A stretch of 16,604 nucleotides of DNA from Synergistaceae bacterium. GTDB taxonomy: Bacteria; Synergistota; Synergistia; Synergistales; Synergistaceae. The position numbers and the translations under genes are program-made. The DNA lies in the NCBI GenBank assembly GCA_031264605.1, contig JAISDQ010000182.1:1-16604 (forward strand). Reading direction: 5' to 3'. The number at the start of each line of letters is the position of its first letter. Position 1 is the first letter of the stretch. The notes under the pieces are model-generated. The model saw only the letters and a program-made list of their open reading frames with translations. It ran no database searches and was not told the DNA's origin. This document shows, piece after piece, positions 1-16,604 of the stretch.

Positions 1-862
1 TCTGATCAAGAAAGCGGTCTCCAACGGGGTGCTCAGCTTCCAGATCAATTATCCCGCCGATTCGGTATACGAACTGGAAAATGAGTTTTATTCGCATTTC
101 GACCTTGATAAAGTGGTAATAGTCCCCACCTCCGTGGACGATATCGGCACAAGGATGAAGGATACCTGCGGGATGGTGGCCTCCGATCTGTGCAAGATCA
201 TACGGCCGAACGACATATTGGGGGTTTCGTGGGGCCTCACGATGGATCAGCTCGCCAGCACGATATCCACCGAGATGCTGATAAACAGAAAGTGCGATAA
301 GGTGGTCATGATGAACGGCTCCATAGCGAGCGAGGTGTATTCGACCAAGTCGAGCTACATCGTCGAACAGTTCGCGGACTTCTTCTCCGCCGAGGGATAC
401 CTGCTGCCGGTTCCAATGATCGTCGACAGCAAGGAGTTGGCCGACACGCTAAAGACTGATTCGCACATAAAATACGTCATGGAGTACGCCAATAACTCCC
501 GTCTAGCTGTATTCAGCATCGGAAGCGCGTCGTACGAGTCGGTTTTGCGCAAACGCGGAGCATATTCCAGAGAGGATTACGAGGATGTTTTGACAAGGGG
601 AGCGGTCGGCGATATTTTGGGGCGCTGTTTCGATATAGACGGCCGGTCGGTCGGGGGCGATATAGACGACCGAATCATAGGTATGGACATAGAGACGCTC
701 AAAACCAAGAATACCCGCATTGGGATAGGGGTCGGCGACAAGAAGGCCAGAGCCATAATAGGCGCGCTGCGCGGCGGAATGATCAGCCGCCTTTACACCG
801 ACGGCATGACGGCAAGGGAGGTAGTAAAGCTTCTCAACGCCGCGGACAATGTCGGAACGTAA
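1..862 (+). CDS. SorC/DeoR-family transcriptional regulator, sugar(-phosphate)-binding domain; 5' end (HTH) truncated by window edge
   Basis: The frame is open from base 2 (LIKKAVSNGVLSFQINY...), upstream of the GTG at 29 listed in the track. Motifs typical of the SorC/CggR/DeoR(B. subtilis) effector-binding domain are present: IVPTSVDD, GVSWG, VVMMNGS, VGDILGRCFDIDG and IGIGVGDKKARAIIGALRGG. Stop TAA at 860-862. Confidence 0.8.
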   Translation, partial: LIKKAVSNGVLSFQINYPADSVYELENEFYSHFDLDKVVIVPTSVDDIGTRMKDTCGMVASDLCKIIRPNDILGVSWGLTMDQLASTISTEMLINRKCDKVVMMNGSIASEVYSTKSSYIVEQFADFFSAEGYLLPVPMIVDSKELADTLKTDSHIKYVMEYANNSRLAVFSIGSASYESVLRKRGAYSREDYEDVLTRGAVGDILGRCFDIDGRSVGGDIDDRIIGMDIETLKTKNTRIGIGVGDKKARAIIGALRGGMISRLYTDGMTAREVVKLLNAADNVGT

Positions 863-2014: not shown

Positions 2015-3055
2015 ATGCTGGCTTGCGTATTCAAAAACGGAAAGTTTGAACTTGCCGAAAAACCTGTCCCGAAGGCCTCTTCCGACAGCGCGGTCGTAAA
2101 AATAAAGGCGACGTCCATATGTGGTACTGATTTCAGGACGTACGTCCACGGCAGCAAGAAGATACTCGAAGGCATAACCGTGGGGCACGAGCTTTGCGGC
2201 GAGATAGTCGAGATAGGAGAAAGCGTGGCCGGGTTTGCCAAAGGAGAAAGGGTTACGGTCGCGCCGGCGCTAGGCTGCGGGGAGTGCTACATGTGCAGAA
2301 AAGGGCACTCCAATATGTGCGACAATCTCAAGACTCTGGGGTATCATTTCGACGGTTCCTTCGCCGAGTACATGGAGATTCCGTCTCCGTTCTTCACGCG
2401 CGGACACGTCAATCATGTCGCGCCGTCGGTCGGCTCCGACCAGGCCGCGCTGGCGGAACCGGTGGCATGCGCCGTCAACGCGCAGGAGTTTTTGCGTATA
2501 GAAAAGGGCGACTACGTCGGAATTTTCGGTTCTGGATTCATCGGATGCAGTCACGCTGAACTTGCCGCGGCGCAGGGCGCTGAAAAGATCATAATGATAG
2601 AGCCCAACGCCGACAGGCTTGAGATTGCCAAACGGACGATCCCCGGAATATACGGGATCACCGGCGACGCCGACGTCGCGTCGTCCGTCAGGAAAATAAC
2701 GGATGGCAGGGGCGTTGACGTCGCCATCGTCGCTTGTTCCGTAGGCCCGGCTCAGACGGCCGCGATCGAGATCGCGGCAAAGCGGGGGAGAGTAAGCCTC
2801 TTCGGCGGACTTCCGGGCGAAGGCAGAGGATTTGTGGACAGCAATCTCATCCACTACAACGAACTCGGAATCTTCGGCGTACACGCTTCCACGCCGCAGC
2901 AAAACCGGCATGTCCTCGATTGGCTGGCCAGCGGCAAAATAGATACGGCGAAGTATATAGCGAAGAAATACCCTCTCGGAGATATCATGCAGGCTTTCGA
3001 CGACATAGCGAAAAAGGGCATCATGAAGGCCGTTATAGCCGACGAGGGCTATTAG
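2015..3055 (+). CDS. Zn-dependent alcohol/polyol dehydrogenase (MDR superfamily), second paralog
   Basis: Catalytic Zn ligands in SICGTD and VGHELCGE. Structural Zn site GCGECYMCRKGHSNMC. Rossmann motif IFGSGFIG. GAGGAG RBS before ATG 2015. Confidence 0.85.
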   Translation: MLACVFKNGKFELAEKPVPKASSDSAVVKIKATSICGTDFRTYVHGSKKILEGITVGHELCGEIVEIGESVAGFAKGERVTVAPALGCGECYMCRKGHSNMCDNLKTLGYHFDGSFAEYMEIPSPFFTRGHVNHVAPSVGSDQAALAEPVACAVNAQEFLRIEKGDYVGIFGSGFIGCSHAELAAAQGAEKIIMIEPNADRLEIAKRTIPGIYGITGDADVASSVRKITDGRGVDVAIVACSVGPAQTAAIEIAAKRGRVSLFGGLPGEGRGFVDSNLIHYNELGIFGVHASTPQQNRHVLDWLASGKIDTAKYIAKKYPLGDIMQAFDDIAKKGIMKAVIADEGY

Positions 3056-3106: not shown

Positions 3107-3748
3107 ATGGACGAGGGACGCGTCAAACTCGAGGTCGAGATCAGAAACGCTGTTTTAATGGCGATATATAAAAAAACCGGTGTGAGATATGTGCCGGTCG
3201 CTGTATCGAACAGGCACGCGCATCTCTCGCGCGCGGATATGGAAGTTTTGTTCGGAGCGGGCCGCAAACTGACGCCCATGAAATCTCTCTCGCAGCCGGG
3301 GCAGTACGCCGCGAAAGAGACTCTCTCGCTGACCGGCCCGAAAGGCAGAATAGACGGAATTCGAGTCCTCGGCCCCGAGAGGGGAAGTTCGCAGGTGGAG
3401 ATATCCGTCACGGATTCGTTCAGGCTTGGCATAACGCCGCTCATCCGCATGTCCGGCGATACGGCCGGCAGTCCAGGGGGACGTGTGGAGACGAAGCTCG
3501 GCTCGGTGGAGTTGAGCGAGGGCGTGATCGTCGCGGCAAGGCACATGCACATATCTTCCGCTCAGGCGCAAATCATGGGCCTCTCCGACGGCCAGGCGGT
3601 ATCTCTCAAGTCCGCCGGCGGACGCGGGGTCGTGTTCGACAATGTGGCCGTCAGGAGCGGAGAGGGTTTCGACCTGGAGGTTCACCTCGACACCGACGAG
3701 GCCAACGCGGCGCTTTTGAGGGACGGGGATCTCCTCGAAGTAGTGTGA
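3107..3748 (+). CDS. pduL: PduL/EutD-type phosphate acyltransferase (phosphotransacylase) with N-terminal amphipathic helix (putative encapsulation peptide)
   Basis: Both PduL repeat signatures are present: VPVAVSNRHAHLS and VIVAARHMHIS. Also QPGQYAAKETL, GPKGRIDGIRVLGPER and DTDEANAA. The first ~25 aa (VKLEVEIRNAVLMAIYKK) form an amphipathic helix before the catalytic domain starts. Confidence 0.85.
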   Translation: MDEGRVKLEVEIRNAVLMAIYKKTGVRYVPVAVSNRHAHLSRADMEVLFGAGRKLTPMKSLSQPGQYAAKETLSLTGPKGRIDGIRVLGPERGSSQVEISVTDSFRLGITPLIRMSGDTAGSPGGRVETKLGSVELSEGVIVAARHMHISSAQAQIMGLSDGQAVSLKSAGGRGVVFDNVAVRSGEGFDLEVHLDTDEANAALLRDGDLLEVV

Positions 3749-4452
3749 ATATGTCTGTGCTGGGTGGGATTTTGGATATCTCGGATGAAAGACAGAGGGG
3801 CTTGCTGATCGGCAGGATCGCTCAGGAGGTATTGTCCCGGCTGAGCGCCCTCGATGCGAAGGATGAAAATGTCTCGGGTACGGTGGTGCTGATGACCTCT
3901 CATATTCCGTCGCCCGCGAGCGCGATGTCAAAATTGAGGGAGAACTTCGGCGGCGAATTGTCCTTCATCGACTTCGGGGTGAAGATTCCGTTTGGTCTCC
4001 CGAATGTCATAGACGCCGGGAAAGAGTCGGAGGGAAGTCTGACGGAGACGGTGGCTTCGGCGGCCGGGGTTGTGCTCCTGGCGCCGAAGATAGGATTGCT
4101 CGACAGCATAGCGAAGGGCGACGACAGGGATTTCATCCCGTATCTCGTGATACGCAGCATGCTGTGGGGAAGAGATGTGAGCGTGCTGCTTGATTTCGAG
4201 CCGCCGCGTTTCAGAAGGAACACGTTTTTTGAGAAACTTGCCGATACGTTCGCGATCCTTCAGGACATGGGGGTCAGACTGCTGACTTATAAATGCGCGC
4301 AAAAGGGCGCCGAGGGTCTGTGCCTCGTCACGGAGGCCGACGTCACAGAAGCCTGGAGAAGCCGCAGGACCGAGATACGCCGGGCGCCGGGCGCTATAAT
4401 TACCCCGGCGGCGAAAGACAAGGCCGGAGAACTCGGGATCAGGCTCAATTGA
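3745..4452 (+). CDS. Hypothetical BMC-associated protein, unknown function; N-terminal amphipathic helix (possible encapsulation peptide). May start at ATG 3751.
   Basis: ORF fills the gap between pduL and the BMC-P gene and overlaps the pduL stop (GTGA). Codon usage matches its neighbours. N-terminal LLIGRIAQEVLSRLSAL helix. No recognisable catalytic motifs (no P-loop, no HxH). C-terminal IITPAAKDKAGELGIRL is vaguely reminiscent of PduM-type BMC structural proteins; this is from memory only and unverified. Confidence 0.5.
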   Translation: MNMSVLGGILDISDERQRGLLIGRIAQEVLSRLSALDAKDENVSGTVVLMTSHIPSPASAMSKLRENFGGELSFIDFGVKIPFGLPNVIDAGKESEGSLTETVASAAGVVLLAPKIGLLDSIAKGDDRDFIPYLVIRSMLWGRDVSVLLDFEPPRFRRNTFFEKLADTFAILQDMGVRLLTYKCAQKGAEGLCLVTEADVTEAWRSRRTEIRRAPGAIITPAAKDKAGELGIRLN

Positions 4453-4494: not shown

Positions 4495-4794
4495 ATGCAA
4501 TTATGCAGAGTTAAAGGCACAGTGGTTAGCACCAACAAGAGCGAAAAGCTGAACGGTTTGAAACTGCTGATCGTGAAACCCATTGACATCGAGACGTTCG
4601 AGGAAAAGGGCGGTATAGTCGTGGCGATCGACGCGGTGGGCGCCGGCGAGGGGGAGGTGGTGATGTGCGTCGGGGGGAGTTCTTCGCGCCAGACGGGCAT
4701 CACTGACGGAAAACCGGTGGATCAGTCCATCGTGGCCATCATTGATTCCGTGAATATGAACGGCAAGCGTATTTTTGAAAAATTCAAGGTATAA
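4495..4794 (+). CDS. BMC vertex (pentamer) protein, EutN/PduN/CcmL family (BMC-P), paralog 1
   Basis: MQLCRVKGTVVSTNKSEKLNGLKLLIV...VAIDAVGAGEGEVVMCVGGSSSR is a classic EutN/CcmL fold sequence of ~99 aa. GGAGAAG RBS. Confidence 0.85.
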   Translation: MQLCRVKGTVVSTNKSEKLNGLKLLIVKPIDIETFEEKGGIVVAIDAVGAGEGEVVMCVGGSSSRQTGITDGKPVDQSIVAIIDSVNMNGKRIFEKFKV

Positions 4795-4824: not shown

Positions 4825-6261
4825 ATGGCGCTAAGCGAGGCACAGATCAGACAGCTTGCAAATGACGCGATTCTGGAGGTAAATGGCGCGAAACCATCGG
4901 CGCCTTCGGGAAAACCGGCGTATTCCGTGTTGCCGCCGGCATCTGGGCAGTGGCTGTGCGACGACGCAAACGAAGCGATCGCGAACGCGAAGCGGTCACA
5001 GATGATACTCGCCAGGATGCCGTTGGAGCAGCGGGGCAGGATAATATCGGCAATGAGAGAAGCCGCCGTCAGGCACGCGGAGACGCTTGCCGAACTCGCT
5101 CACAATGAGACCGGTTACGGGAGGGTAGATCACAAGGTTTTGAAGAACCGCCTGGCCGCTGCAAACACGCCTGGCATAGAGGATCTCCGCCCGATGGCGT
5201 ACAGCGGAGACAACGGACTCACCATAGTGGAGGGAGCGCCGTTCGGGGTGATAGGTTCCATAACTCCTTCGACCAATCCTACATCCACGGTCATAAACAA
5301 CTCGATAAGCATGATAGCGGCCGGCAACTCCGTGGTGTACAATCCGCATCCGTCCGCGAAGAATTCTTCCACTGAGGCGATGCGCGTCCTGAATGAAGCG
5401 GCAGCGGCTGCCGGAGGTCCGCCCGCCCTCATGACCACGGTAAAGGTTCCGACTCTGCAGAGCGGAGCTGCCATCATGAGCCACAGGGACGTCAAATTAC
5501 TTTCCATCACGGGCGGCGAGGCCGTCGTCAGCGTGGCGATGAAATCGGGCAAGAAAGTGATCGCCGCCGGGCCCGGAAATCCGCCGGTTATCGTGGACGA
5601 TACCGCCTTCATACCGCAGGCCGCTAAAGATATAGTCGACGGTGCGAGCTTCGACAACAACGTGCTCTGTGTGGCCGAGAAGGAGGTGTTCGCCTTCGAG
5701 GGTATCGCGGGAGAGCTGGTGAGCCAGATGGTACACTGCGGGGCCCACAAAGTTTCCGGAACGGACATCGATAAAATAGTCAATACGGTGTTGGAGAAGC
5801 GCGACGGCAAGTACGTCATAAACAGAAATTTCGTAGGGCGCAGCGCGACCCATATACTCGAACAGAGCGGAGTCCCTTACGTCGGGGAGCCGAGGCTGGT
5901 CATAGCCGAAGTGGACAAGTACCATCCGTTTGTGACGACTGAAATGCTGATGCCGGTGCTTCCGGTCGTCCGCGTCGGCAACATAGACGAAGCCATCGAG
6001 GAAGCGCTTCGCGCGGAACAGGGATATCAGCATTCGGCCATGATTCACTCCACGAACATACGGAATATGTCCGCCGCGGCCTACGCGCTGAACACGACGA
6101 TATTCGTGAAGAATGCGCCGTCATACAGCGGATTGGGCTTCGGGGGGGAGGGCTACGCCACTCTTACGATAGCGACTCCGACCGGGGAGGGCCTGACGAG
6201 CGCGAAGTCCTTTACCCGTGCCAGGCGATGCGTATTGAAGGGCGATTTCAGAATCGTCTGA
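4825..6261 (+). CDS. CoA-acylating aldehyde dehydrogenase (PduP/EutE family) with N-terminal encapsulation peptide and Pro/Ser-rich linker
   Basis: ITPSTNPTST motif. Catalytic Cys in FDNNVLCVAEKE. AAGPGNPP motif. ~478 aa. N-terminus SEAQIRQLANDAILEV (amphipathic) followed by NGAKPSAPSGKPAYSVLPPASGQ linker. Confidence 0.9.
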   Translation: MALSEAQIRQLANDAILEVNGAKPSAPSGKPAYSVLPPASGQWLCDDANEAIANAKRSQMILARMPLEQRGRIISAMREAAVRHAETLAELAHNETGYGRVDHKVLKNRLAAANTPGIEDLRPMAYSGDNGLTIVEGAPFGVIGSITPSTNPTSTVINNSISMIAAGNSVVYNPHPSAKNSSTEAMRVLNEAAAAAGGPPALMTTVKVPTLQSGAAIMSHRDVKLLSITGGEAVVSVAMKSGKKVIAAGPGNPPVIVDDTAFIPQAAKDIVDGASFDNNVLCVAEKEVFAFEGIAGELVSQMVHCGAHKVSGTDIDKIVNTVLEKRDGKYVINRNFVGRSATHILEQSGVPYVGEPRLVIAEVDKYHPFVTTEMLMPVLPVVRVGNIDEAIEEALRAEQGYQHSAMIHSTNIRNMSAAAYALNTTIFVKNAPSYSGLGFGGEGYATLTIATPTGEGLTSAKSFTRARRCVLKGDFRIV

Positions 6262-6268
6262 TTCGATC

Positions 6269-7576
6269 ATGAACGTAGCGGAGATGATTCGCAGCGCCGG
6301 AGTGGTGGGAGCCGGAGGCGCGGGATTCCCGACCCACGTCAAGGTAAACGCGGCTTCGCCCGAGTGCGTCATAGCCAACGGAGCGGAGTGCGAGCCTTTA
6401 TTGCGGGTGGATCAGCAAGTCATGGAGTTCCACGCCGGTTCTGTCATTGAAGGGTTGCGTCTGGTCATGAGCCATACTGACGCGCGTCGTGGCGTCATCG
6501 CCCTGAAGGATCACTACGAGGGCGCGATAACGGCTCTCCGGCGTGAGTTGTCCGGCTCGGACGACATAGGGCTTCACGTCATGAGAAGCTACTATCCCGC
6601 CGGGGACGAACAGCAGCTAGTGTACGATATCTGCGGGCGGGTCGTTCCGACAGGCGGGATTCCTCTTGATGTGGGGGCGGTGGTATTGAACGTCAGCACG
6701 CTTATGCACGTGGACGAAGGGAGCCGGAACATCCCGGTGACGGATAAATATGTGACGGTCGGCGGAGCGGTTCGCAGGCCTGTTACGGTCAAGGCCCCGA
6801 TAGGCGCGCCGATGGACGTTTTACTCGACGCCGCCGGAGGGACGACGGAGAAATGCGGTTACATAATCGGAGGGCCCTGTATGGGCAGAGTTGTCTCAGA
6901 CCTGAGCTTCCCGGTCGTGAAAACTACCGGAGGGATCATAGCGATACCGGAGGGACATCCGCTCCTTCAAAAAAAGAGCGATCGCATGAGCGTGCAGCTT
7001 ATCAAAGCCGTGTGCTGTCAGTGTTCCTTATGCACCCAGATGTGCCCCAGAAACGCGCTTGGGCTTCGCGTCGAACCTCATAAGGCTATGCGCAGCCTGG
7101 CCCAGGGAGTCGACCTGCTAAATGGGGCGAATGGCCTTTTCTCCTGCTGTGACTGCGGGATATGCACATACTACGCCTGCAATTTCGGCCTGAAACCGTC
7201 CAAGGTCATGGGACTGCTGAAGGCTGAAATGCAGAAGGCGGGAGTCAAGCCCAGGAAGGAAGTTTACTCGGCGGCCGACAGGGGGCTCGGCATGAAGAAA
7301 CTGCCCACCGCAAGGCTCATACACAGGTTGGGCATAGGGAAGTACGATGTGGCGGCTCCCATGGAGGAGCGTCCGATTTATACGGCCGTCGTCAGGATAC
7401 CCCTCAAGATGCACATAGGCGCCCCATCCAAGCCGGTTGCCTCGGTCGGACAGCGCGTAAACAGGGGCGATCTGATTGCCGATATACCGGAGGGGGCATT
7501 GGGCGCGAAAGTACACGCGAGCATCGACGGGACGGTTACCGAAGTGACCGGCGAATATATGGAGATAAAGGTGTAG
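6269..7576 (+). CDS. pduS: PduS-like Fe-S flavoprotein (RnfC/NADH-dehydrogenase 51 kDa-like domain plus two 4Fe-4S ferredoxin motifs)
   Basis: N-terminus MIRSAGVVGAGGAGFPTHVK matches the PduS/RnfC signature. Two cluster motifs: CCQCSLCTQMCP and CCDCGICTYYAC. The stop is only 4 nt upstream of the PduT-like gene. Confidence 0.8.
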   Translation: MNVAEMIRSAGVVGAGGAGFPTHVKVNAASPECVIANGAECEPLLRVDQQVMEFHAGSVIEGLRLVMSHTDARRGVIALKDHYEGAITALRRELSGSDDIGLHVMRSYYPAGDEQQLVYDICGRVVPTGGIPLDVGAVVLNVSTLMHVDEGSRNIPVTDKYVTVGGAVRRPVTVKAPIGAPMDVLLDAAGGTTEKCGYIIGGPCMGRVVSDLSFPVVKTTGGIIAIPEGHPLLQKKSDRMSVQLIKAVCCQCSLCTQMCPRNALGLRVEPHKAMRSLAQGVDLLNGANGLFSCCDCGICTYYACNFGLKPSKVMGLLKAEMQKAGVKPRKEVYSAADRGLGMKKLPTARLIHRLGIGKYDVAAPMEERPIYTAVVRIPLKMHIGAPSKPVASVGQRVNRGDLIADIPEGALGAKVHASIDGTVTEVTGEYMEIKV

Positions 7577-7579
7577 CTG

Positions 7580-8128
7580 ATGGGACAGGCGCTTGGAATG
7601 ATTGAACTCATAAGTGTTCCCGCTGGGATCGAGGCCGGCGACGCGATGCTGAAAGCCGCCGCCGTGGAATTGGTGACGGCGCAGGCGGCTTGCGCGGGCA
7701 AATACTTCGTCGCGGTCACCGGCGAGGTGGCCGCGGTGGAAGCGAGCGTCAAAGCCGGCAGGGAAGCCGCGTCCATGAAGCTGATCGACAGTCTCGTGAT
7801 ACCGAATATAGACGCGCAGGTACCCCTCGCCATCAACATGTGCAGCGATCCGGGGGAAATAGAGACGCTCGGGGCGATAGAGACGTTCTCTCTGTGCGCC
7901 GCGATAGTGGCGGCGGACTGCGCCGTGAAAGCCGCGCGGGTACGGCTCATAGAGATCAGGCTGGGCAGAGGGTTGGGCGGCAAGTCGTTCATAACTCTCA
8001 CCGGCGATGTGGCGGCGGTAAAAGCCGCGGTGAAAGCCGCCTCGGAAGTCGAAGAAGTCAGAGGCCTGATGGCGGAGAGCGTGGTAATACCTTCGCCGCA
8101 CCCCGATATGGTCAAGGCGGTATTTTGA
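7580..8128 (+). CDS. pduT: PduT-like tandem-domain shell protein (BMC-T) with conserved pore cysteine (Cys38) for a 4Fe-4S cluster
   Basis: 182 aa with two BMC domains. Aligns along its length to Salmonella PduT: MGQALGMIELISVPAGIEAGDAMLKAA, IDSLVIPNIDAQVPLAI and GAIETFSLCAAIVAADCAVKA...VIPSPHPDM. Cys at residue 38 (TGC 7691-7693) is at the position of the PduT cluster ligand. Confidence 0.8.
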   Translation: MGQALGMIELISVPAGIEAGDAMLKAAAVELVTAQAACAGKYFVAVTGEVAAVEASVKAGREAASMKLIDSLVIPNIDAQVPLAINMCSDPGEIETLGAIETFSLCAAIVAADCAVKAARVRLIEIRLGRGLGGKSFITLTGDVAAVKAAVKAASEVEEVRGLMAESVVIPSPHPDMVKAVF

Positions 8129-8488: not shown

Positions 8489-8755
8489 GTGTACGCGGGC
8501 GAGGTCGTCGGGTGCGTAGTAGCTACGGTTAAGGAACCCAACCTGGAGGGTATACCGCTCCTGGTGGTGAGGGTAATCGAAAACGGCAAGCCGGCCAATC
8601 TGGTGGTTGCCGCGGATTCGACCCGTCAGGCCGGCAGCGGCGACCATGTGTACATGATCGGCTCCAAGGAGGCCGCTCGCATGTTCCGTAAGAAGCTGAC
8701 TCCGGTGGATGTGGCGATTGTGGGTTTTATTGACGAATACAGGGAGGAACTTTGA
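8489..8755 (+). CDS. BMC vertex protein (EutN/PduN family, BMC-P), paralog 2; probable GTG start
   Basis: VYAGEVVGCVVATVKEPNLEGIPLLVVRVIENGKP...AADSTRQAGSGDHVYMIGSKEAARMF. The same frame stays open upstream to 8393, but that stretch overlaps the BMC-H tail in another frame and is Arg-rich junk. GTG at 8489 gives the canonical MxxAxVVGxVV start. Confidence 0.7.
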   Translation: MYAGEVVGCVVATVKEPNLEGIPLLVVRVIENGKPANLVVAADSTRQAGSGDHVYMIGSKEAARMFRKKLTPVDVAIVGFIDEYREEL

Positions 8756-8794: not shown

Positions 8795-9073
8795 ATGGAG
8801 AAATTGGCGCTTGGTATGGTAGAGACGAGGGGTTTGATAGGCGCGATCGAAGCGGCGGACGCCATGGTTAAGGCCGCTAACGTGACTCTGATTGGCAAGG
8901 AACAGATCGGCAGCGGTCTCGTGACCGCTATGGTGAGAGGCGACGTGGGCGCGGTAAAGGCGGCCGTCGACGCCGGAGCGGCGGCGGCGAAAAGAGTCGG
9001 CGAACTCTATGGCGTACACGTTATCCCAAGCCCGCACAACGACGTCGAGGGTATTCTGCCCGGCAAAAAATAG
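8795..9073 (+). CDS. BMC hexamer shell protein (BMC-H), copy 2 (near-identical protein to copy 1, diverged at synonymous sites)
   Basis: [97 protein letters not shown]. Confidence 0.9.
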
Positions 9074-9082
9074 GGGACGCCG

Positions 9083-9370
9083 GTGAGAATCGCCGCAGTC
9101 GTAGGAAACGTAGTTTCCACGATAAAGGACGAGTCATACCGCGGATACAAACTTATGATCATCGAATACCTGAACGAGGACGGAAAACCGTCCGGGGCGC
9201 GTCAGATAGCGTTTGACGCCGGACAGGCCGGCATAGGCGACGTAGTGCTCGTCAACGTGGACGGGGGAGCGGCGAACATGATGCTCGATAAAGACGTCAT
9301 CGCCGATCTCACAATTTGCGGCGTCCTGGACAGCTATACCTATGACGGGAAGACGAAGGTATTCTTCTGA
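9083..9370 (+). CDS. BMC vertex protein (EutN/PduN family, BMC-P), paralog 3; GTG start
   Basis: MRIAAVVGNVVSTIKDESYRGYKLMII...AFDAGQAGIGDVVLVNVDGGAANMM matches the EutN fold sequence. Confidence 0.8.
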   Translation: MRIAAVVGNVVSTIKDESYRGYKLMIIEYLNEDGKPSGARQIAFDAGQAGIGDVVLVNVDGGAANMMLDKDVIADLTICGVLDSYTYDGKTKVFF

Positions 9371-9383
9371 GGTGGTGGTTGAA

Positions 9384-10133
9384 ATGGATATTGAAAAGAT
9401 CGTGAGCGATGTGCTCAAGGAGGTTCAATCCGGGGGAACTGTTCACGGAAAACCCTCGCCGGGTTCGGTTCAGGCGTGGGAAGTTCCGTCGAAGCTGGAG
9501 CACTCGCTGCTGAACCCGGATGTCGGCCTCGGCAAGATATTGGCGGAGTGCGCCGTCGCGCGGCGGTATTGCGTAGCGGCGGTCTGTGTCGCGCCCTATT
9601 ATGTGTCCGCCGCCGCCGACGTCCTGAGAGGAAGCGGCGTAAAGGTCTGCGCCGCGATAGGTTTCCCGCACGGTTGCATGTCGGCGGCGTCAAAACTGGC
9701 CGAAGCGCGCGAGTGCGTCAAAAACGGCGCGGACGAAATCGACGTCGCGATGAACATTCTTGCGGTAAAATCGGGCAGGATCGCCGACGCAAGGGACGAT
9801 TTCGAACAGATAGCGGCCGCCTCGCGCGGAAAGACTACGCTCAAGGCGGTTTTCGAGCACAGCGTGTACTCCGACGAGGAGAAGCGCGCCGTGCTGGAAA
9901 TCGTGAAGACCTGCGGAGCCGAGTTCGTGAAGATACAAAACGTCCTGAGCGGCAAGGGCGCCGAAACCGAGGACATAAAATATGTGAGGAATATCCTGGG
10001 CCGTAACGTGAAAGTCAAGATCGACGGCGGCGTAAAGACGCTGGCGAAGGCGATGGAACTGTTGTCCGCGGGAGCGGATCGCATAGGACTCACAGCGACC
10101 GCGGCGATCGCGAAAGAGGCGGAGTGTAAATAA
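9384..10133 (+). CDS. Divergent DeoC-family class I aldolase (deoxyribose-phosphate aldolase-like) with N-terminal extension (putative encapsulation peptide)
   Basis: TIM-barrel DeoC architecture: AAVCVAPYYV, AAIGFPHG, EFVKIQNV (Schiff-base Lys retained) and KVKIDGGVKT (second Lys retained). The consensus TSTGF and phosphate-loop GTSSG are replaced by IQNVL and GLTAT. N-terminus MDIEKIVSDVLKEVQS plus a Gly/Pro/Ser linker. ATG 9384 with GAGGTGG RBS; the track's start at 9342 overlaps the upstream gene. Confidence 0.7.
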   Translation: MDIEKIVSDVLKEVQSGGTVHGKPSPGSVQAWEVPSKLEHSLLNPDVGLGKILAECAVARRYCVAAVCVAPYYVSAAADVLRGSGVKVCAAIGFPHGCMSAASKLAEARECVKNGADEIDVAMNILAVKSGRIADARDDFEQIAAASRGKTTLKAVFEHSVYSDEEKRAVLEIVKTCGAEFVKIQNVLSGKGAETEDIKYVRNILGRNVKVKIDGGVKTLAKAMELLSAGADRIGLTATAAIAKEAECK

Positions 10134-10164: not shown

Positions 10165-11001
10165 ATGAGCGCGATAGATATCAATGAAATTATCAGGCAG
10201 GTGACTGCCGAGATATGCGCCAACTACGGCGCGGCTTCTTCCGCGCCGGCTGATGAGTACAGTCCGGCGTCGCTGGCGAAGTACATCGACCATACGCTGC
10301 TTAAGCCCGACGCCAGCCTGAACGATATACGCAAGGTCTGTGACGAAGCAAAGAAGCATAACTTCGCTAGCGTGTGCGTGAACACCGGCTACATAAAATT
10401 CGTAGCCGACGCTCTGGAGGGCAGCGGAGTGGCGCCATGCTGCGTCGTCGGTTTCCCGCTGGGAGCCATGATGCCCGAGGCCAAAGCGGCCGAGGCGCTG
10501 TGCGCCGTCAACAGCGGCGCTAAAGAGGTCGACATGGTCATAAACGTCGGAGCGGTGAAATCATCCGACTGGAAATTGGTCCACAGCGACATAGAGGGCG
10601 TCGTGACGGCGGCTCGCGGAAGAGCCATAGTGAAGGTGATAATAGAGACATGCCTCCTCACCGACGAGGAAAAGGTGAAGGCATGCGCGATCAGCAAACT
10701 CGCGGGGGCTCATTTCGTGAAAACGTCCACCGGATTTTCGACCGGCGGAGCGACGGTGGAAGACGTGCGTCTGATGCGCCGGACAATAGGTCCCGATATG
10801 GGACTCAAGGCATCCGGAGGAGTGAGGACGTACGAGGACGCGGTCAACATGCTGAAGGCCGGAGCCACCAGGCTGGGAACCAGTTCAGGAACGAAGATCG
10901 TATCGGGCGACGGCGCGGCGGAGCACAAATGCGTGAACTGCGGAGCGTGCAAAGTCGTGTGCCCGAGCGGCAGGGCCACGGTCATAAAAGGCCTGTACTG
11001 A
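10165..11001 (+). CDS. deoC: Deoxyribose-phosphate aldolase (DeoC) with N-terminal encapsulation-peptide-like extension and C-terminal CxxCxxCxxxCP 4Fe-4S ferredoxin-type motif
   Basis: Canonical DERA motifs: YIDHTLLKPDA, VCVNTGY, VVGFPLGA, HFVKTSTGFSTGGAT, GLKASGGVRT and RLGTSSG. N-terminus MSAIDINEIIRQVTAEI plus an Ala/Ser/Pro linker. C-terminal tail KCVNCGACKVVCP (nt 10930-10965). Confidence 0.85.
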   Translation: MSAIDINEIIRQVTAEICANYGAASSAPADEYSPASLAKYIDHTLLKPDASLNDIRKVCDEAKKHNFASVCVNTGYIKFVADALEGSGVAPCCVVGFPLGAMMPEAKAAEALCAVNSGAKEVDMVINVGAVKSSDWKLVHSDIEGVVTAARGRAIVKVIIETCLLTDEEKVKACAISKLAGAHFVKTSTGFSTGGATVEDVRLMRRTIGPDMGLKASGGVRTYEDAVNMLKAGATRLGTSSGTKIVSGDGAAEHKCVNCGACKVVCPSGRATVIKGLY

Positions 11002-11023: not shown

Positions 11024-11779
11024 ATGAGAAAACCGATTATCGCCGGTAACTGGAAGATGAACATGACGCCGTCACAGACGGTGAAGCTGATCGAGGAGAT
11101 CAAGCCTCTCGTCGCGGAGGCGAGATGTGAGATCGTCGTCTGTCCGACCCATACGTGCCTCTTTGCGGCTAAAGAGGCCCTTAAAGGGACGGACAGAATA
11201 TCCCTCGGCGCTCAGGACATGTTTTACGAGGAGAGGGGCGCTTTCACCGGCGAGGTCTCCTGCGAATCGCTGCTCGAACTCGGCGTCAGATACGTGATCA
11301 TCGGACATTCGGAGCGCCGCCAATACTTCGCCGAGTCCGACGAGACGGTCAGCAAAAAAGTCACGAAGGCCCTGGAAAAACGCCTGATTCCGATTGTCTG
11401 CGTGGGCGAGTCGCTCACGCAGAAACAGCGGGGAGTTACGAACGAAACCGTGGGGTTGCAGACGCGTCTCGCGCTTTTCGGCGTCGGCGCCGGAAACGCG
11501 GAGGACGTCGTGATAGCGTACGAACCGATCTGGGCAATCGGAACAGGCATGACGGCCACCAGCGCGGAGGCGAACGGCACGATACGCCGTATAAGAGGCG
11601 TCCTCGCCGAGATGTACAATCCGGAAACCTCGCGGAAAGTCCGCATTCTTTACGGGGGCAGCATGAACGCCGGAAACGCAGGGGAATTGCTTTCAACGAG
11701 CGACATAGACGGAGGACTGATAGGCGGCGCGAGCCTGAAGAGCGGCGATTTCGCGCAAATCGTGGGCAACTTGAGCTGA
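11024..11779 (+). CDS. tpiA: Triosephosphate isomerase
   Basis: IIAGNWKMN, catalytic His in IIGHSERR, AYEPIWAIGTG (catalytic Glu) and YGGSMN. No N-terminal extension. Confidence 0.9.
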   Translation: MRKPIIAGNWKMNMTPSQTVKLIEEIKPLVAEARCEIVVCPTHTCLFAAKEALKGTDRISLGAQDMFYEERGAFTGEVSCESLLELGVRYVIIGHSERRQYFAESDETVSKKVTKALEKRLIPIVCVGESLTQKQRGVTNETVGLQTRLALFGVGAGNAEDVVIAYEPIWAIGTGMTATSAEANGTIRRIRGVLAEMYNPETSRKVRILYGGSMNAGNAGELLSTSDIDGGLIGGASLKSGDFAQIVGNLS

Positions 11780-11928: not shown

Positions 11929-13125
11929 CTAATAGACAACCTCTATTTTCTTGCCGCACTTGGATGATTCGGCAAGGGTCTCCAGAATGACCGCTGCTCT
12001 GTAGCCGTCCTCGAACGTAGCGCATAACGGGCCAACTTCTTTGTCGTTTGCCACACAGTCGAGAAAATGAGCGATCAGATTGATGTGACCGTGTTCCCAG
12101 CCGCAATTATGGCCTGCGGGCCACCATATCTTCATGAACGGATGATTGGGCAGCGTGCAGGAAATTCTTGTAAAGCCGGCAATTTCGGGAACAGGCGCTT
12201 CTCTGAGCTGCACATTGAGATAAGTAGGATCCTCGAGGCTCCATGTAATAGTTCCTTTTGTTCCGTAGATCTCCCAATAAAGATGGTTATACCTGCCGGA
12301 TGCGACTGACATGTTTTCAATGGTTCCGGTAGCGCCGTTGTTAAAGTCAATGAGAGCCCGAATGCTGTCATCATAAGGCACATCGACCATAGCGCCGTTT
12401 TTGCGGGCGGAGGGTCTCTGTTTCGGGATAGAACGCATATCGCCCGTTATCGAAGCAACTTCGCCAACGAGGAATCGAGCCTGGTCAATAAGGTGCGTTC
12501 CCAACCCCTGGGAGTTGCCTGTCATGTTTTGATACCAGACGTTTTCAACAGGGAGATCGAGAGGAAGGGCATATTCCTGATGATATCTTCCGTAAAAGTG
12601 AAGTATGTCGCCGACCGCCCCTTTGTTGATAAGCTCGTACGCAAGCCTGACAGCGCCTTGAAAACGATAGTTAAAACACAGAGCGTTCTTGACGTTTGCC
12701 TTATTGACCGCGTCCAGCATTTTTTTTGACGCTTCTCTGCCCAAGGCCATCGGTTTTTCGCATATGATATGTTTGCCGGCTTCGGCAGCGTCAATACAAG
12801 GCTGCATGTGAAGACTGTCCACACAGACATTGTCAAATACAGAAACGTCAGGATCCGCGATAAGATCTTTCCAGCCGCCATAATGGTTCTTGAAGCCGTA
12901 CCTGTCAGCGGCAGCCTTGGCATTTTCCACGGTGGAAGCGCTAATTGCGATCAGTTCCGGCACATAGTTTGTTTCAAACATATAGCTGATCGTCTTGTAC
13001 GCATTGGAATGAGCCTTGCCCATGAAGCCCCTGCCAAAAAGACCGATTCCGATTTTTTTTCTGGGCTGTGAGAAATCGCCGACACTGTAACCTATACCTA
13101 TGTTTTTTACTTCGCTCATAATCAC
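11929..13125 (-). CDS. Gfo/Idh/MocA-family NAD(P)-dependent oxidoreductase
   Basis: N-terminal Rossmann motif IGIGLFGRGFMGKAHSNAY and the family hallmark EKPMAL. ~398 aa. AGGTG RBS before ATG. Confidence 0.8.
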   Translation of the reverse strand: MIMSEVKNIGIGYSVGDFSQPRKKIGIGLFGRGFMGKAHSNAYKTISYMFETNYVPELIAISASTVENAKAAADRYGFKNHYGGWKDLIADPDVSVFDNVCVDSLHMQPCIDAAEAGKHIICEKPMALGREASKKMLDAVNKANVKNALCFNYRFQGAVRLAYELINKGAVGDILHFYGRYHQEYALPLDLPVENVWYQNMTGNSQGLGTHLIDQARFLVGEVASITGDMRSIPKQRPSARKNGAMVDVPYDDSIRALIDFNNGATGTIENMSVASGRYNHLYWEIYGTKGTITWSLEDPTYLNVQLREAPVPEIAGFTRISCTLPNHPFMKIWWPAGHNCGWEHGHINLIAHFLDCVANDKEVGPLCATFEDGYRAAVILETLAESSKCGKKIEVVY

Positions 13126-13248
13126 CGCACCTTTTTTCTTTGCGTCTTCCTACCCTCTTTTAATACTATTTCCCATAGTACACCCTTATCCGCCGCTCCG
13201 GCTATTTCACGGAATATTTCACAAAGACCTTACCTGGCATGTCTCGCC

Positions 13249-14025
13249 TCACTCATCCCTCCCGGCGTATATGACGGTTGCGTAGCTTGTGCCGGATTCT
13301 ACGCGGCGGCCCAGAATATCCGACGAGTCCGTGTGTTCCATGACGACGCCCTTTACCGCGCCGAGTTCGCTGAACAGACGGAGGACAAGCGACGCGGCTC
13401 TCCGCGCGTCGATATCCAAGCGGCCGGTTTGCATCGGTTCCAGGGCCGTCAGGACTTCGAGAGTCAGTTCGTCCTCCTGGCGCATCGCTTCAGGGGTTTT
13501 GTAATGCGACAGATCCATGCTCAAAATGATCATGTCGCTTTCCAGCGCCGCTTCGAGCATGTATTTTTTCAGCATCAGGAGAGCGATATCGGGTATGTTC
13601 GGTTTCAGCACCATAGGGACGACCGTCGCGTTGGGGAAATACCGCGCGATGAACGGAATGTGGATGGTGATTCCGTGTTCTTCCGCGAAAAGACGCGGAT
13701 TTGACGTGACCACGCTCAAGCCGGAGAAACCGCTTTTCGCGTCGTCGTCGGCTTTAACTGTCCATCCCGCCGTTTGCCAATCATCGCCGCATACCTCGGC
13801 GTAATTTCTTGCCCGTTTGAAATGGTCGGGCGACAGCAGCCACACGCGTCTGACCTTATCCGAGGAAACGCGTTCATAAAACCGCGATATCATGTCCAGC
13901 GCGAGACCGTGGTGCGGCACGATTCCCCCGAGTATCCGCGCTCCGGCGTCCGCGTTCGCTGACGCCGAAAGCGCAAAAAACATGCCGCAGAAAACGGCGA
14001 CAAACAGGCGTTTCTTTGCCGTCAT
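13249..14025 (-). CDS. MEMO1 / AmmeMemoRadiSam-system protein B family protein with N-terminal signal peptide (exported)
   Basis: GGIVPHHGLALD and LSMDLSHY resemble the MEMO1 His/Asp-containing motifs. N-terminus MTAKKRLFVAVFCGMFFALSASANA is a typical Sec signal peptide with an AxA cleavage site. Its start codon overlaps the stop of the upstream gene (ATGA). Confidence 0.65.
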   Translation of the reverse strand: MTAKKRLFVAVFCGMFFALSASANADAGARILGGIVPHHGLALDMISRFYERVSSDKVRRVWLLSPDHFKRARNYAEVCGDDWQTAGWTVKADDDAKSGFSGLSVVTSNPRLFAEEHGITIHIPFIARYFPNATVVPMVLKPNIPDIALLMLKKYMLEAALESDMIILSMDLSHYKTPEAMRQEDELTLEVLTALEPMQTGRLDIDARRAASLVLRLFSELGAVKGVVMEHTDSSDILGRRVESGTSYATVIYAGRDE

Positions 14026-16604
14026 CGCGTGTTTTCCTTAAATTCTCTATACCAGTCGGGGCAGAGCCGTTCCAATTCATTTTCGCGGCCCGGGTCGTAT
14101 ACTATGGCCTTCCATTCCTCGTCCGTCATACGCTCGGACACGGAGCGCTCGAACTCGTAATACGAAAAAACGTAGCCTTTTGTGACGCGGGCCCCGCCGG
14201 ATTTGTCGTTCGCGAATACGTAAATCGCCCGCGGTGTCCCGGAAGCCGCTTCCAGAACCGTCATATCCCAACCGTTCGTCGCCGTATCCGCCACGCACGC
14301 CATCTTCCTCAGCTCTCCGTCGTCCGTCAGCATGCCGTATCCGGGAAGAAGAAGGAATCTGTCGAAAGCGCGCGCTGTCTCCTTGATCGAAGCGTATTCG
14401 CCTGGGGATAGCGTCTCTTTGGTAACTTCCTTCCTCGCGATATCCCTCATAGATTCGAGCATCGCCGAAAATTTTCCGAGTCTGTCGGAATATTTCGTCT
14501 CGCCGTCGCCATCGTTGTCCTCCACGCCGAAGCCTTCTATGAAAGCCCTCAAATTGTCCGTCGCGCCGAGCATCGCTGAGAAGAACTGCGGATCGGGCTC
14601 CACGTAGCCTCTCGGTCGCGGAGGCTCGAATCCGCCGGCATACCAGTTGTCGCCGCCCTCGCCCATCTCCGCCATGCTCTGCTCGGCGTACAAAATGGTG
14701 TCGTGTTTTAGTTCGGCCCATGAAGCCAGATTCGTCGCCAGTTTCTTCCATCGCCACCCCTCGGTTCCGTAAAAAAACTGCTCCGATCCCGAGTCTTTGA
14801 AACCGGCCAGAAACGTTTCGAGCCAGCTAGCGTAGACGGTGTTCTCCCCGGCGAGATATCCGGCGGCTTCGTCTTTCAGTTCCGCAAGGCTGGCTTCGTA
14901 GTTTTCAATGTCGTAATCGTTTTTCGAGAGAGCGTCCGCGGCGGACGACCCGAATACCGCCATGACGTCCGTTCCCTTCGGCATGTTCCGCGGGTTTTCA
15001 TCGGTTCCGACGCTGGGCGACGTAAGCCGGTTCATTATGTAAGCGTCATAGGTGAAGCGTTTGGGCGAGATTCTGAAAACCGCGCTTCTGGATTCGAAAT
15101 CAGCCCCTGCCGCGTCAATCCCCGCGACGCTCCGAATCTTCGGCCCCGAAACGTTTTCCGCGATATCCTCCGCGAGACGGGCAATCACGGCTTCGTCGCC
15201 GAGGAGCGCCCAGGCATCCTGTCCGCCGTCTCCCAAGCGTTTCCGCACGATCCCGCGATAAATTTTCGGGTCTCCGGCGTTGGGAACGCCTATCAGCAAA
15301 GTCATCGCGTCCTCGAACGTCTCCCAGTTTCCCCTCTGCGCGTCCATCGCGAGAGCGATTGCCGCGGCGGCCGCGACGTTGTGCGCGATCGGTTTTCCGT
15401 CCATGCCGAACATCGGCAGTTCGGCGAGCCCGACGTAACTCATCGCGCGAAAGTAGCGTTCGTACTCGGGGGAGATCGTGTAGTGTCCGCGCGGTTTGAA
15501 CAGCGTGTAGTCGATTTTCTGTCCGGTTATACCCGAAACTTCCATTTCGGAGGCCGCCATGATTTTTTCGGTTTCCGCGGCCGCTCGCGGCGATAGTTTT
15601 TCGCCCGCCGGATTTTCCGACAACAGCGCTTGTGCGACCGACAACATATCATGGGCTGTGTCGAAAGACCGCCGCGCGGCGTCCCCGCCGTCCGAGCGCT
15701 TTCGCGCCGCATCCACCAGGCCGATCGCCCCGTTCAAATTCTCCGCGAGCTGGGGCGCGAGGTATGTGCGCTCGAATTTTTGCAGCATCTGGTCGAATAT
15801 GAGATGGAACGAATGGAGAAAAATATCCGCCGTGATGAAATCCGCCTCGTACTCTCCCGTAAGCGAGTAAAGATCGGCCATATCGTCGACACGGACGCCG
15901 TATTCATCAGGCAAAAGAGCCTTGTCGTCTATGAGAAACCCACGTTTTTCGAGCGAATCGGCGAATCGTTCCGGCAGATTTTCGATATTTTCCGCGCCGC
16001 CCGGCTCGGCGCGCAATCTTCGCGACGAGGGTATGAGGGCGCGGTCGGCTTTCGAGTTGTCCGGTTCGTACGAGTCCAGCACGATGAAATCTTCCCCGCG
16101 TCCCCACGCGAAACGGCGGCCTACGCCGGATTCTCCGTCAACCGTGCCGAAGGACATGAGCACATATCCGTCGCGTTTCCCGTACGAGGGAACGATTTCT
16201 CCTTTAAGCAGCGAAAAATCACGCCCCGGCAGATCGCTTTTGCCGCCGCCGGGCATCAGTGAAAGTTCCGGCCCGTCGCGGAGGGCCATATAGAGCGCGC
16301 CGCGGGTTGGTTCGCAATCCGGAAACGGCTCTACGCCGTCCTCGGGAATATAGCCCAGCACGCTGCCGTCATCCGGAGATATGAGCGCGAACCAGCCGCA
16401 TTCGGGACGCAACGTCAGTTTGTTGCCGTAGACGACGACGCCTTCTATATCGTCGCCGTATTCGATCCCGCCGTCGCCGGTTTTGGCGTATTCGCCGCCC
16501 GGCGAGTTCATGATCGGCAGTATTTCCGCGACGACGGTATATTCTCCCTCGCCCGCCGCCTCGCGGGAAGCCGCGCGCGCCTCTCCGTCAAACGCCAGAA
16601 GCAG
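14022..16604 (-). CDS. Large conserved hypothetical protein (>860 aa; possibly DUF3160-like), N-terminus beyond window
   Basis: Continuous minus-strand frame with no stop from 16604 down to 14022, so the ATG at 16511 in the track is probably internal. Codon usage matches a genuine CDS. Acidic and Gly-rich, with no catalytic motif recognisable by eye. Translationally coupled to the MEMO-like gene. Confidence 0.5.
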   Translation of the reverse strand: MLLAFDGEARAASREAAGEGEYTVVAEILPIMNSPGGEYAKTGDGGIEYGDDIEGVVVYGNKLTLRPECGWFALISPDDGSVLGYIPEDGVEPFPDCEPTRGALYMALRDGPELSLMPGGGKSDLPGRDFSLLKGEIVPSYGKRDGYVLMSFGTVDGESGVGRRFAWGRGEDFIVLDSYEPDNSKADRALIPSSRRLRAEPGGAENIENLPERFADSLEKRGFLIDDKALLPDEYGVRVDDMADLYSLTGEYEADFITADIFLHSFHLIFDQMLQKFERTYLAPQLAENLNGAIGLVDAARKRSDGGDAARRSFDTAHDMLSVAQALLSENPAGEKLSPRAAAETEKIMAASEMEVSGITGQKIDYTLFKPRGHYTISPEYERYFRAMSYVGLAELPMFGMDGKPIAHNVAAAAAIALAMDAQRGNWETFEDAMTLLIGVPNAGDPKIYRGIVRKRLGDGGQDAWALLGDEAVIARLAEDIAENVSGPKIRSVAGIDAAGADFESRSAVFRISPKRFTYDAYIMNRLTSPSVGTDENPRNMPKGTDVMAVFGSSAADALSKNDYDIENYEASLAELKDEAAGYLAGENTVYASWLETFLAGFKDSGSEQFFYGTEGWRWKKLATNLASWAELKHDTILYAEQSMAEMGEGGDNWYAGGFEPPRPRGYVEPDPQFFSAMLGATDNLRAFIEGFGVEDNDGDGETKYSDRLGKFSAMLESMRDIARKEVTKETLSPGEYASIKETARAFDRFLLLPGYGMLTDDGELRKMACVADTATNGWDMTVLEAASGTPRAIYVFANDKSGGARVTKGYVFSYYEFERSVSERMTDEEWKAIVYDPGRENELERLCPDWYREFKENTR

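Follow-up and report, generated by a model that had tools for sequence, protein, structure and literature searches.

The 16,604-nt window considered here (the whole stretch of DNA that was analysed) is the complete contig of a Synergistaceae metagenome-assembled genome (MAG), and in its middle part two neighbouring genes encode a PduS-type NADH-oxidising Fe-S flavoprotein and a PduT-type shell protein of a bacterial microcompartment (BMC). In our judgement, it is likely that this pair is an MNdh/BMC-T(SE) member situated in a sugar-phosphate-utilisation (SPU) microcompartment, from which it would export electrons taken from lumenal NADH. PduS homologues have been renamed MNdh by Sutter et al. 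(PNAS 2024; PMC11626177), who reported them in 2,172 of more than 7,000 BMC loci. Gene identity, domain architecture, motif conservation, adjacency and operon content can be read directly from the DNA, and the counts given below refer to the 120 best database homologues of the PduT-type protein (identity down to 59%), to 80 related loci (L001-L080) from Synergistaceae, Christensenellaceae and Oscillospiraceae, in 77 of which the contig continues past PduS, and to a family-wide set of 146 PduT-type representatives at 50% identity. The two genes and their key motifs are as follows.

6269..7576, + strand: PduS-type NADH-oxidising Fe-S flavoprotein (MNdh), 435 aa
6308..6331, + strand: glycine-rich GAGGAGFP of the PduS-type protein (aa 14-21), NADH/FMN (flavin mononucleotide) site, conserved with RnfC and Salmonella enterica PduS
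7013..7048, + strand: first 4Fe-4S motif, C249-x2-C252-x2-C255-x3-C259-P, invariant in comparison with S. enterica PduS and relatives, present in 80/80 related loci
7145..7180, + strand: second 4Fe-4S motif, C293-x2-C296-x2-C299-x4-C304, with an unusual x4 spacing also found in S. enterica PduS, present in 80/80 related loci
7580..8128, + strand: PduT-type single-layer tandem BMC-T shell protein (BMC-T(SE)), 182 aa
7691..7702, + strand: pore motif C38-A-G-K of the PduT-type protein, Cys38 codon TGC at 7691-7693, one Cys per trimer subunit

The PduS-type protein displays the MNdh domain order PF01512 - PF10531 - 4Fe-4S dicluster - PF13375, with Pfam matches to Complex1_51K (PF01512, E 2.1e-44, aa 7-148), SLBB (PF10531, aa 161-205), Fer4_17 (PF13534, aa 249-308) and RnfC_N (PF13375, E 1.8e-13, aa 374-428). 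Its alignment to RnfC structures (E 1.6e-54) splits into two stretches, query residues 363-426 corresponding to residues 22-83 of RnfC and residues 4-302 to 124-413, and the protein is therefore circularly permuted, its RnfC_N domain having moved to the C-terminal end, a permutation that is characteristic of PduS/MNdh and sets them apart from RnfC. The NGAECEP motif is common to RnfC, the rnfC model TIGR01945 scores 250 bits, and the annotated S. enterica PduS is 42% identical over the full length. The original prediction, made from the letters of this DNA without database searches, had described a PduS-like protein with two 4Fe-4S motifs, and the Pfam domains, the RnfC match and the alignment to S. 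enterica PduS all bear this out. Both ORFs of the pair lie on the + strand exactly where that prediction had placed them, and E-values as low as those of the two proteins are not to be expected by chance.

The PduT-type protein consists of two PF00936 BMC domains within 182 aa (E 1e-46), and its nearest solved relatives are the PduT-type trimers 3nwg (E 2e-48), 3pac (E 2e-39) and 3n79 "PduT" (E 3e-35), to which it aligns without gaps through residue ~105. Its identity to S. enterica PduT is 39% over the full length, and Cys38 of the window protein aligns, again without gaps, to the cluster-ligand Cys38 of that protein, by which it is predicted to be a ligand of a 4Fe-4S cluster in the pore. 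The NCBIfam model TIGR02526 eut_PduT gives 112 bits, under its equivalog cut-off of 250. The presence of a PduT-like trimer with Cys38 immediately next to the flavoprotein had also been predicted and holds, and the residue whose loss in orthologues had been named as the weak point of that proposal is a Cys in all of them: both Cys38 and the complete CAGK are found in 120/120 database homologues and in 77/77 genome loci. This conservation is informative and no trivial invariant of the family, because only 102 of the 146 family-wide representatives have a Cys at position 38, the remaining 44 having Ser, Thr or another residue. The "universal" pore motif was given as CP(G/S)K (Sutter et al., 2024; PMC11626177), which the window protein does not match literally; here and across its clade the motif is CAGK, with Cys, Gly and Lys kept and Pro replaced by Ala. 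Among the Cys-bearing representatives CPGK occurs 70 times, CAGK 11, CPGR nine and CSGK seven times, making CAGK the second commonest variant, and we read the published motif as probably too narrow, rather than the window protein as a non-member.

The two genes are separated by a spacer of 3 nt, and the gene of a CoA-acylating aldehyde dehydrogenase (AldDH) ends 7 nt upstream of the PduS gene. PduT follows PduS in 77/77 of the related loci with a continuing contig, for 76 of which the distance between the genes lies in the range from -4 to +21 nt, and an immediate adjacency of MNdh to a Cys-bearing BMC-T(S) has been reported for 97% of all MNdh loci (Sutter et al., 2024). The block PduL - PduM-like - BMC-P - AldDH - PduS - PduT of the window is collinear with pduL-M-N-(O)-P-(Q)-S-T of S. 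enterica, and what is missing from it is exactly pduO (adenosyltransferase) and pduQ (alcohol dehydrogenase). Profile searches found no Fe-type alcohol dehydrogenase (Fe-ADH) among the open reading frames (ORFs) of the 16.6-kb contig, in agreement with the predicted lack of an encapsulated alcohol dehydrogenase at the locus, and none within 10 kb in any of the related Synergistaceae or Christensenellaceae loci; the Oscillospiraceae versions of the locus have an Fe-ADH directly upstream of PduL. The contig ORFs likewise include no B12-dependent enzyme, PduO, reactivase or B12-binding domain, so that the other objection named with the original prediction, a cobalamin reductase serving a B12 enzyme encoded nearby, finds no support in the contig. 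The window belongs to the class of loci with AldDH plus PduS/PduT and no alcohol dehydrogenase. Sutter et al. counted 361 MNdh loci without an alcohol dehydrogenase and listed SPU among the types that do not depend on B12.

Six related loci depart from this arrangement in another respect, having the PduM-like/BMC-P/PduS/PduT/shell block and no AldDH within 10 kb. They come from uncultured Oscillospiraceae (L014, L017, L019, L020), where the order is DUF6076 - Fe-ADH - PduL, and from Anaerotruncus colihominis (L018, L026), where an APH-family kinase, an IF-2B-family isomerase, a class II aldolase and an Fe-ADH stand instead of AldDH, a set that resembles the 5-deoxyribose/methylthioribose "DHAP shunt". 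These loci are an apparent exception to the rule that MNdh occurs only with AldDH, unless the AldDH is encoded elsewhere.

By analogy with the published system, cluster formation, docking, the direction of electron flow and the physiological role of the window pair would be as follows. A lumenal deoxyribose-phosphate aldolase (DERA) would release acetaldehyde, which the acylating AldDH would turn into acetyl-CoA with the reduction of NAD+ to NADH, the CoA being recycled by PduL. Docked to the PduT-type trimer from the lumenal side, the PduS-type flavoprotein would oxidise the NADH at its FMN and pass single electrons via its two 4Fe-4S clusters to the pore 4Fe-4S cluster held by the three Cys38 residues, from which a cytosolic acceptor would take them up. 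As an alcohol dehydrogenase of the encapsulated type is missing from the operon, NAD+ recycling probably depends on the pair as its sole route, with no acetaldehyde lost as ethanol. The original prediction had proposed the same export of electrons from lumenal NADH, with the aldehyde kept for acyl-CoA; homology supports it, and it equals the published MNdh/BMC-T(SE) model, so the idea is not new. It had further held that the reduction of NAD+ by AldDH is the only cofactor-consuming step inside the shell, of which the AldDH step can be retained and the word "only" cannot, CoA being consumed in the lumen as well and presumably recycled by the PduL of the locus (3107-3748).

One long + strand operon of 16 genes extends from the left edge of the window to about position 11,779, and the scan for terminators found no terminator-like site after its last gene. 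In addition to the pair, it comprises the following features.

29..862, + strand: SorC/DeoR-type sugar-binding regulator (PF04198, E 2.4e-58), N-terminal DNA-binding part lost at the contig end
911..1972, + strand: Zn-dependent polyol/sugar-alcohol-type dehydrogenase 1 (ZnADH1; PF08240 and PF00107)
2015..3055, + strand: Zn-dependent dehydrogenase 2, without extension
3107..3748, + strand: PduL-type phosphotransacylase (PF06130, E 6.8e-69, from aa 30; PRK15070, 240 bits), N-terminal extension of ~29 aa
3751..4452, + strand: conserved hypothetical protein, 233 aa, in the pduM slot
4495..4794, + strand: BMC-P pentamer protein 1 (PF03319, E 2.6e-27)
4825..6261, + strand: AldDH (PRK15398, 622.8 bits, cut-off 403; PF00171 from aa 46), N-terminal extension of ~40 aa
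8170..8481, + strand: BMC-H hexamer protein 1 (PF00936, E 3.5e-29)
8489..8755, + strand: BMC-P pentamer protein 2 (PF03319, E 1.1e-16), start most likely GTG 8489, right after the BMC-H stop
8795..9073, + strand: BMC-H hexamer protein 2 (PF00936, E 2.9e-29)
9083..9370, + strand: BMC-P pentamer protein 3 (PF03319, E 8.8e-22)
9384..10133, + strand: DERA1, divergent DERA paralogue (TIGR00126, 165 bits; PDB DERA match, E 1e-40)
10165..11001, + strand: DERA2, deoxyribose-phosphate aldolase, the acetaldehyde-producing signature enzyme (TIGR00126, 278.6 bits; PDB DERAs, E 3e-77)
10930..10965, + strand: C-terminal CxxCxxCxxxCP half-ferredoxin motif of DERA2 (C256-P267), within a 28-aa tail
11024..11779, + strand: triosephosphate isomerase (TPI; PF00121, E 3.7e-89, domain from aa 4)

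The locus is an SPU microcompartment as defined by Axen et al. (2014), Sutter et al. (2021) and Dwyer et al. (2024; PMC11585597), since it has a DeoC-type aldolase (PF01791) with an N-terminal extension, an AldDH and shell genes with at least three BMC-P, the Pfam search of the contig ORFs giving three BMC-P, two BMC-H and one BMC-T in total. The aldolase microcompartment of the original prediction is confirmed by the same genes (DERA, acylating AldDH, PduL and the shell set). N-terminal helical extensions are present on AldDH, PduL, DERA1, DERA2 and the PduM-like hypothetical protein, which fits the encapsulation described for SPU enzymes, and are absent from both Zn-dependent alcohol dehydrogenases (Zn-ADHs) and from TPI. 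With other SPU loci the window shares DERA and AldDH with N-terminal extensions, PduL, PduS, TPI, the BMC-P triplet and a single BMC-T(S), and with SPU1 and SPU4 the lack of a BMC-T(dp); it differs from them in lacking RpiB, in having a second, divergent DERA, in its TPI without extension and in a four-Cys tail of DERA2 that is not described there. No RpiB-type isomerase (PF02502) was matched among the window ORFs. RpiB is found in most SPU subtypes, in 18 of 29 SPU4 loci, and is absent from SPU5; its absence here is compatible with SPU membership, because the curated definition asks for AldDH plus DERA or RPI. The gene composition fits SPU1 or SPU4, and the TPI of the window is without the N-terminal encapsulation peptide reported for the TPI of SPU4 (Dwyer et al., 2024). 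The TPI gene begins only 22 nt after DERA2 and its Pfam domain starts at aa 4; lacking an extension, the enzyme is presumably cytosolic. DERA1 has an N-terminal amphipathic helix of its own and retains the Asp/Lys/Lys catalytic positions, with the phosphate-site KTSTG changed to KIQNV, and it occupies the position of the (inactive) RpiB partner of other SPU subtypes.

The protein encoded at 3751..4452 was considered as a flavoprotein acceptor, as an N-terminal helix is followed by a Rossmann-like domain with a predicted fold like that of PF02441 "Flavoprotein". This is disfavoured: its sequence lacks the flavin-contact motif Ser/Thr-Ala-Asn-Thr, and with its N-terminal helix the protein is probably lumenal. 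It matches PduM weakly in sequence (E 0.004-0.008) and is probably a PduM-family structural protein. On the opposite strand, positions 11929-16511 hold a convergent set of three genes that appears unrelated to the BMC operon. Their products are a GFO/IDH/MocA oxidoreductase, a Memo-like protein whose N-terminus resembles a signal peptide, and a DUF3160 protein of 829 aa.

The two Zn-ADHs at the start of the operon had been expected to lie outside the shell for want of N-terminal extensions, and neither has one, the true start of ZnADH1 being placed at ATG 911, preceded by the ribosome-binding site GAGGGG. The best NCBIfam match of ZnADH1 is galactitol-1-P 5-dehydrogenase, below cut-off, and the families that the two Zn-ADHs match best, those of polyol-phosphate, inosose or threonine dehydrogenases, likewise score below cut-off. 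Their company varies between relatives. In the closest one (L001, 1-5600), which like the window has SorC and two Zn-dehydrogenases, an aldose epimerase and an FGGY kinase precede the dehydrogenases; in Christensenella hongkongensis HKU16 (L005, ~14000-21000), a cultured relative, a SorC - ZnADH - FGGY kinase unit lies between two DERA genes, beside an ABC sugar transporter; and in a member of the Synergistales that shares the BMC core (L067, 2240-6592) the Zn-ADHs are replaced by a GntR/TRAP-transporter/RraA-like module. Since their partners vary in this way, the Zn-ADHs are best regarded as a variable substrate-feeding module and not as core enzymes, and the variation suggests that different entry substrates converge on one aldolase compartment. 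As candidates for the missing alcohol dehydrogenase they were rejected, given the lack of extensions, the polyol-type matches and the association with varying feeder modules.

The signature aldolase itself carries an unusual feature. DERA2 is ~60% identical to crystallised DERAs and has an encapsulation-type helix at aa 6-21 in its AlphaFold2 model; beyond the aldolase domain, its tail (aa 251-278, nt 10915-10998; HKCVNCGACKVVCPSGRATVIKGLY) contains a single ferredoxin-type CxxCxxCxxxCP. The Cys tail is absent from solved DERAs and is kept in 36 of 43 orthologues in the genome loci and in 118 of 120 database homologues, the last residue being Tyr in 116 of these. No mention of it was found in the SPU paper or in a literature search. 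The model has a pLDDT below 50 over the tail and no confident fold, and loci whose DERA2 is without the tail still have PduS/PduT. The tail may be a lumenal Fe-S site. A more far-reaching idea, which we regard as a long shot, is that in the widespread CAGK-type SPU clade the export module has a further partner, the tail assembling a lumenal Fe-S centre (e.g., a dimeric 2x[4Fe-4S] ferredoxin-like one) with a physical or electronic coupling to the PduS/PduT wire. Such a centre would act as a tether under redox control or as a sensor through which the production of aldehyde is linked to NAD+ recycling.

Among characterised systems, the window pair comes closest to MNdh/BMC-T(SE) of the Clostridium botulinum GRM1 locus, which forms a stable, co-purifying complex that oxidises NADH with a kcat of 20 per s, and for which electron paramagnetic resonance (EPR) revealed NADH-dependent reduction of the BMC-T cluster and voltammetry graded potentials; the stated advantage of the system is that the substrate ends up entirely in the CoA product (Sutter et al., 2024). 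Common to both are the permuted four-domain protein with its two 4Fe-4S motifs and FMN/NADH site, the adjacent single-layer tandem BMC-T with a pore Cys, the acylating AldDH and membership in the class without alcohol dehydrogenase and without an alcohol by-product. They differ in the pore motif (CAGK in the window, CP(G/S)K in the published pair) and in the locus, which is of the SPU type in a Synergistaceae bacterium rather than GRM1 of Clostridium. With PduS/PduT of S. enterica the pair shares, besides the 42% and 39% identity, the spacing of the Fe-S motifs, Cys38 and the local gene order, whereas the pdu locus of S. enterica has pduO, pduQ and a B12 enzyme, its PduS a 14-aa extension and its PduT a CPGK, none of which is present in the window. 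RnfC (e.g., 7zc6_C) has the NADH/FMN domain, the SLBB domain and the two 4Fe-4S clusters in common with the PduS-type protein; in the latter, however, the RnfC_N barrel-sandwich domain is at the C-terminus, no other Rnf subunits are encoded nearby and the partner is a shell protein instead of a membrane complex. Electron transport by PduS/PduT in non-B12 loci was already raised by Axen et al. (2014), who noted PduS in SPU loci, and Dwyer et al. (2024), who found PduS homologues in every SPU subtype but SPU6, named MNdh as the alternative NAD+-recycling route there. The window pair is a correct observation of an already known kind, with a mechanism that has been published and already applied to SPU loci.

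Several points weigh against the assignment of the pair to an electron-exporting MNdh/BMC-T(SE) module. The pore motif is CAGK and not CP(G/S)K, and the solved relatives 3nwg and 3pac have CPGK. The PduS-type protein carries neither an encapsulation peptide nor the 14-aa N-terminal extension of its S. enterica counterpart, so that its placement in the lumen depends on docking to the shell protein as modelled by Sutter et al. (2024), where MNdh came to lie outside the shell in half of the AlphaFold solutions. No acceptor gene (ferredoxin, flavodoxin, hydrogenase) was found in the window, and no conserved ferredoxin, flavodoxin or hydrogenase in the flanks of the relatives L067, L003, L005 and L001; the published in vitro acceptor is O2 (Sutter et al., 2024), whereas the host is an anaerobic member of the Synergistaceae. 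The evidence for the pair in this bacterium is, moreover, genomic throughout.

NAD+ might instead be regenerated mainly by other means, such as the reduction of acetaldehyde by one of the two Zn-dehydrogenases, an alcohol dehydrogenase whose gene lies elsewhere or the exchange of NAD(H) through the shell, with the pair as an accessory. The position taken upstream of PduL by the Fe-ADH of Oscillospiraceae is held in the window by the Zn-ADH pair, an alcohol dehydrogenase is encoded in the majority of MNdh loci (1,725) as well, knock-outs of pduS or pduT in Salmonella merely slow growth (Sutter et al., 2024), and the contig covers 16.6 kb of the genome. Yet the Zn-ADHs lack terminal extensions, match polyol-phosphate, inosose and threonine dehydrogenases rather than ethanol-forming enzymes, travel with SorC, FGGY kinase and sugar transporters and give way to the TRAP-transporter/RraA module in the Synergistales relative, and all Synergistaceae and Christensenellaceae loci are free of an Fe-ADH over 10 kb, which together makes this explanation unlikely. 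It is quite improbable that the pore cluster of PduT serves as a sensor or gate responding to redox state or oxygen, or in the insertion or repair of the Fe-S clusters of PduS, with electrons perhaps even flowing inward. Mutations of Cys38 in PduT have been linked to altered permeability, the fourth ligand of the cluster is open, and the possible Fe-S site on DERA2 is a hint that redox chemistry other than the oxidation of NADH takes place in the lumen; against this, the locus encodes no lumenal enzyme consuming NADH or electrons, and the strict adjacency to PduS together with the published EPR and voltammetry favours an outward wire from NADH. That PduS is a cobalamin reductase serving a B12-dependent enzyme, with PduT supporting that role, is scarcely credible: its 42% identity is to a protein annotated at NCBI as "cobalamin reductase PduS", and a B12 role was originally proposed for S. 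enterica PduS, but the contig ORFs offer no B12 enzyme, PduO, reactivase or B12-binding domain, the block collinear with the pduL-T order is without exactly pduO and pduQ, DERA needs no cofactor, and Sutter et al. (2024) have argued against a B12 role in general.

The general idea to which the MNdh/BMC-T(SE) assignment connects the locus is that of a protein shell as a redox-separating membrane, across which a protein wire recycles NAD+ with no aldehyde wasted as alcohol, and the window adds one more example of this published system, from a Synergistaceae MAG. The large CAGK clade to which it belongs, common in gut and termite-gut samples, departs from the published CP(G/S)K motif. If a DERA2 Fe-S tail were indeed coupled to the PduS/PduT wire, the MNdh system would gain a new component. 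Members of the CAGK clade from Synergistaceae and Christensenellaceae, with no alcohol dehydrogenase encoded at the locus, would be clean "MNdh-only" test systems.

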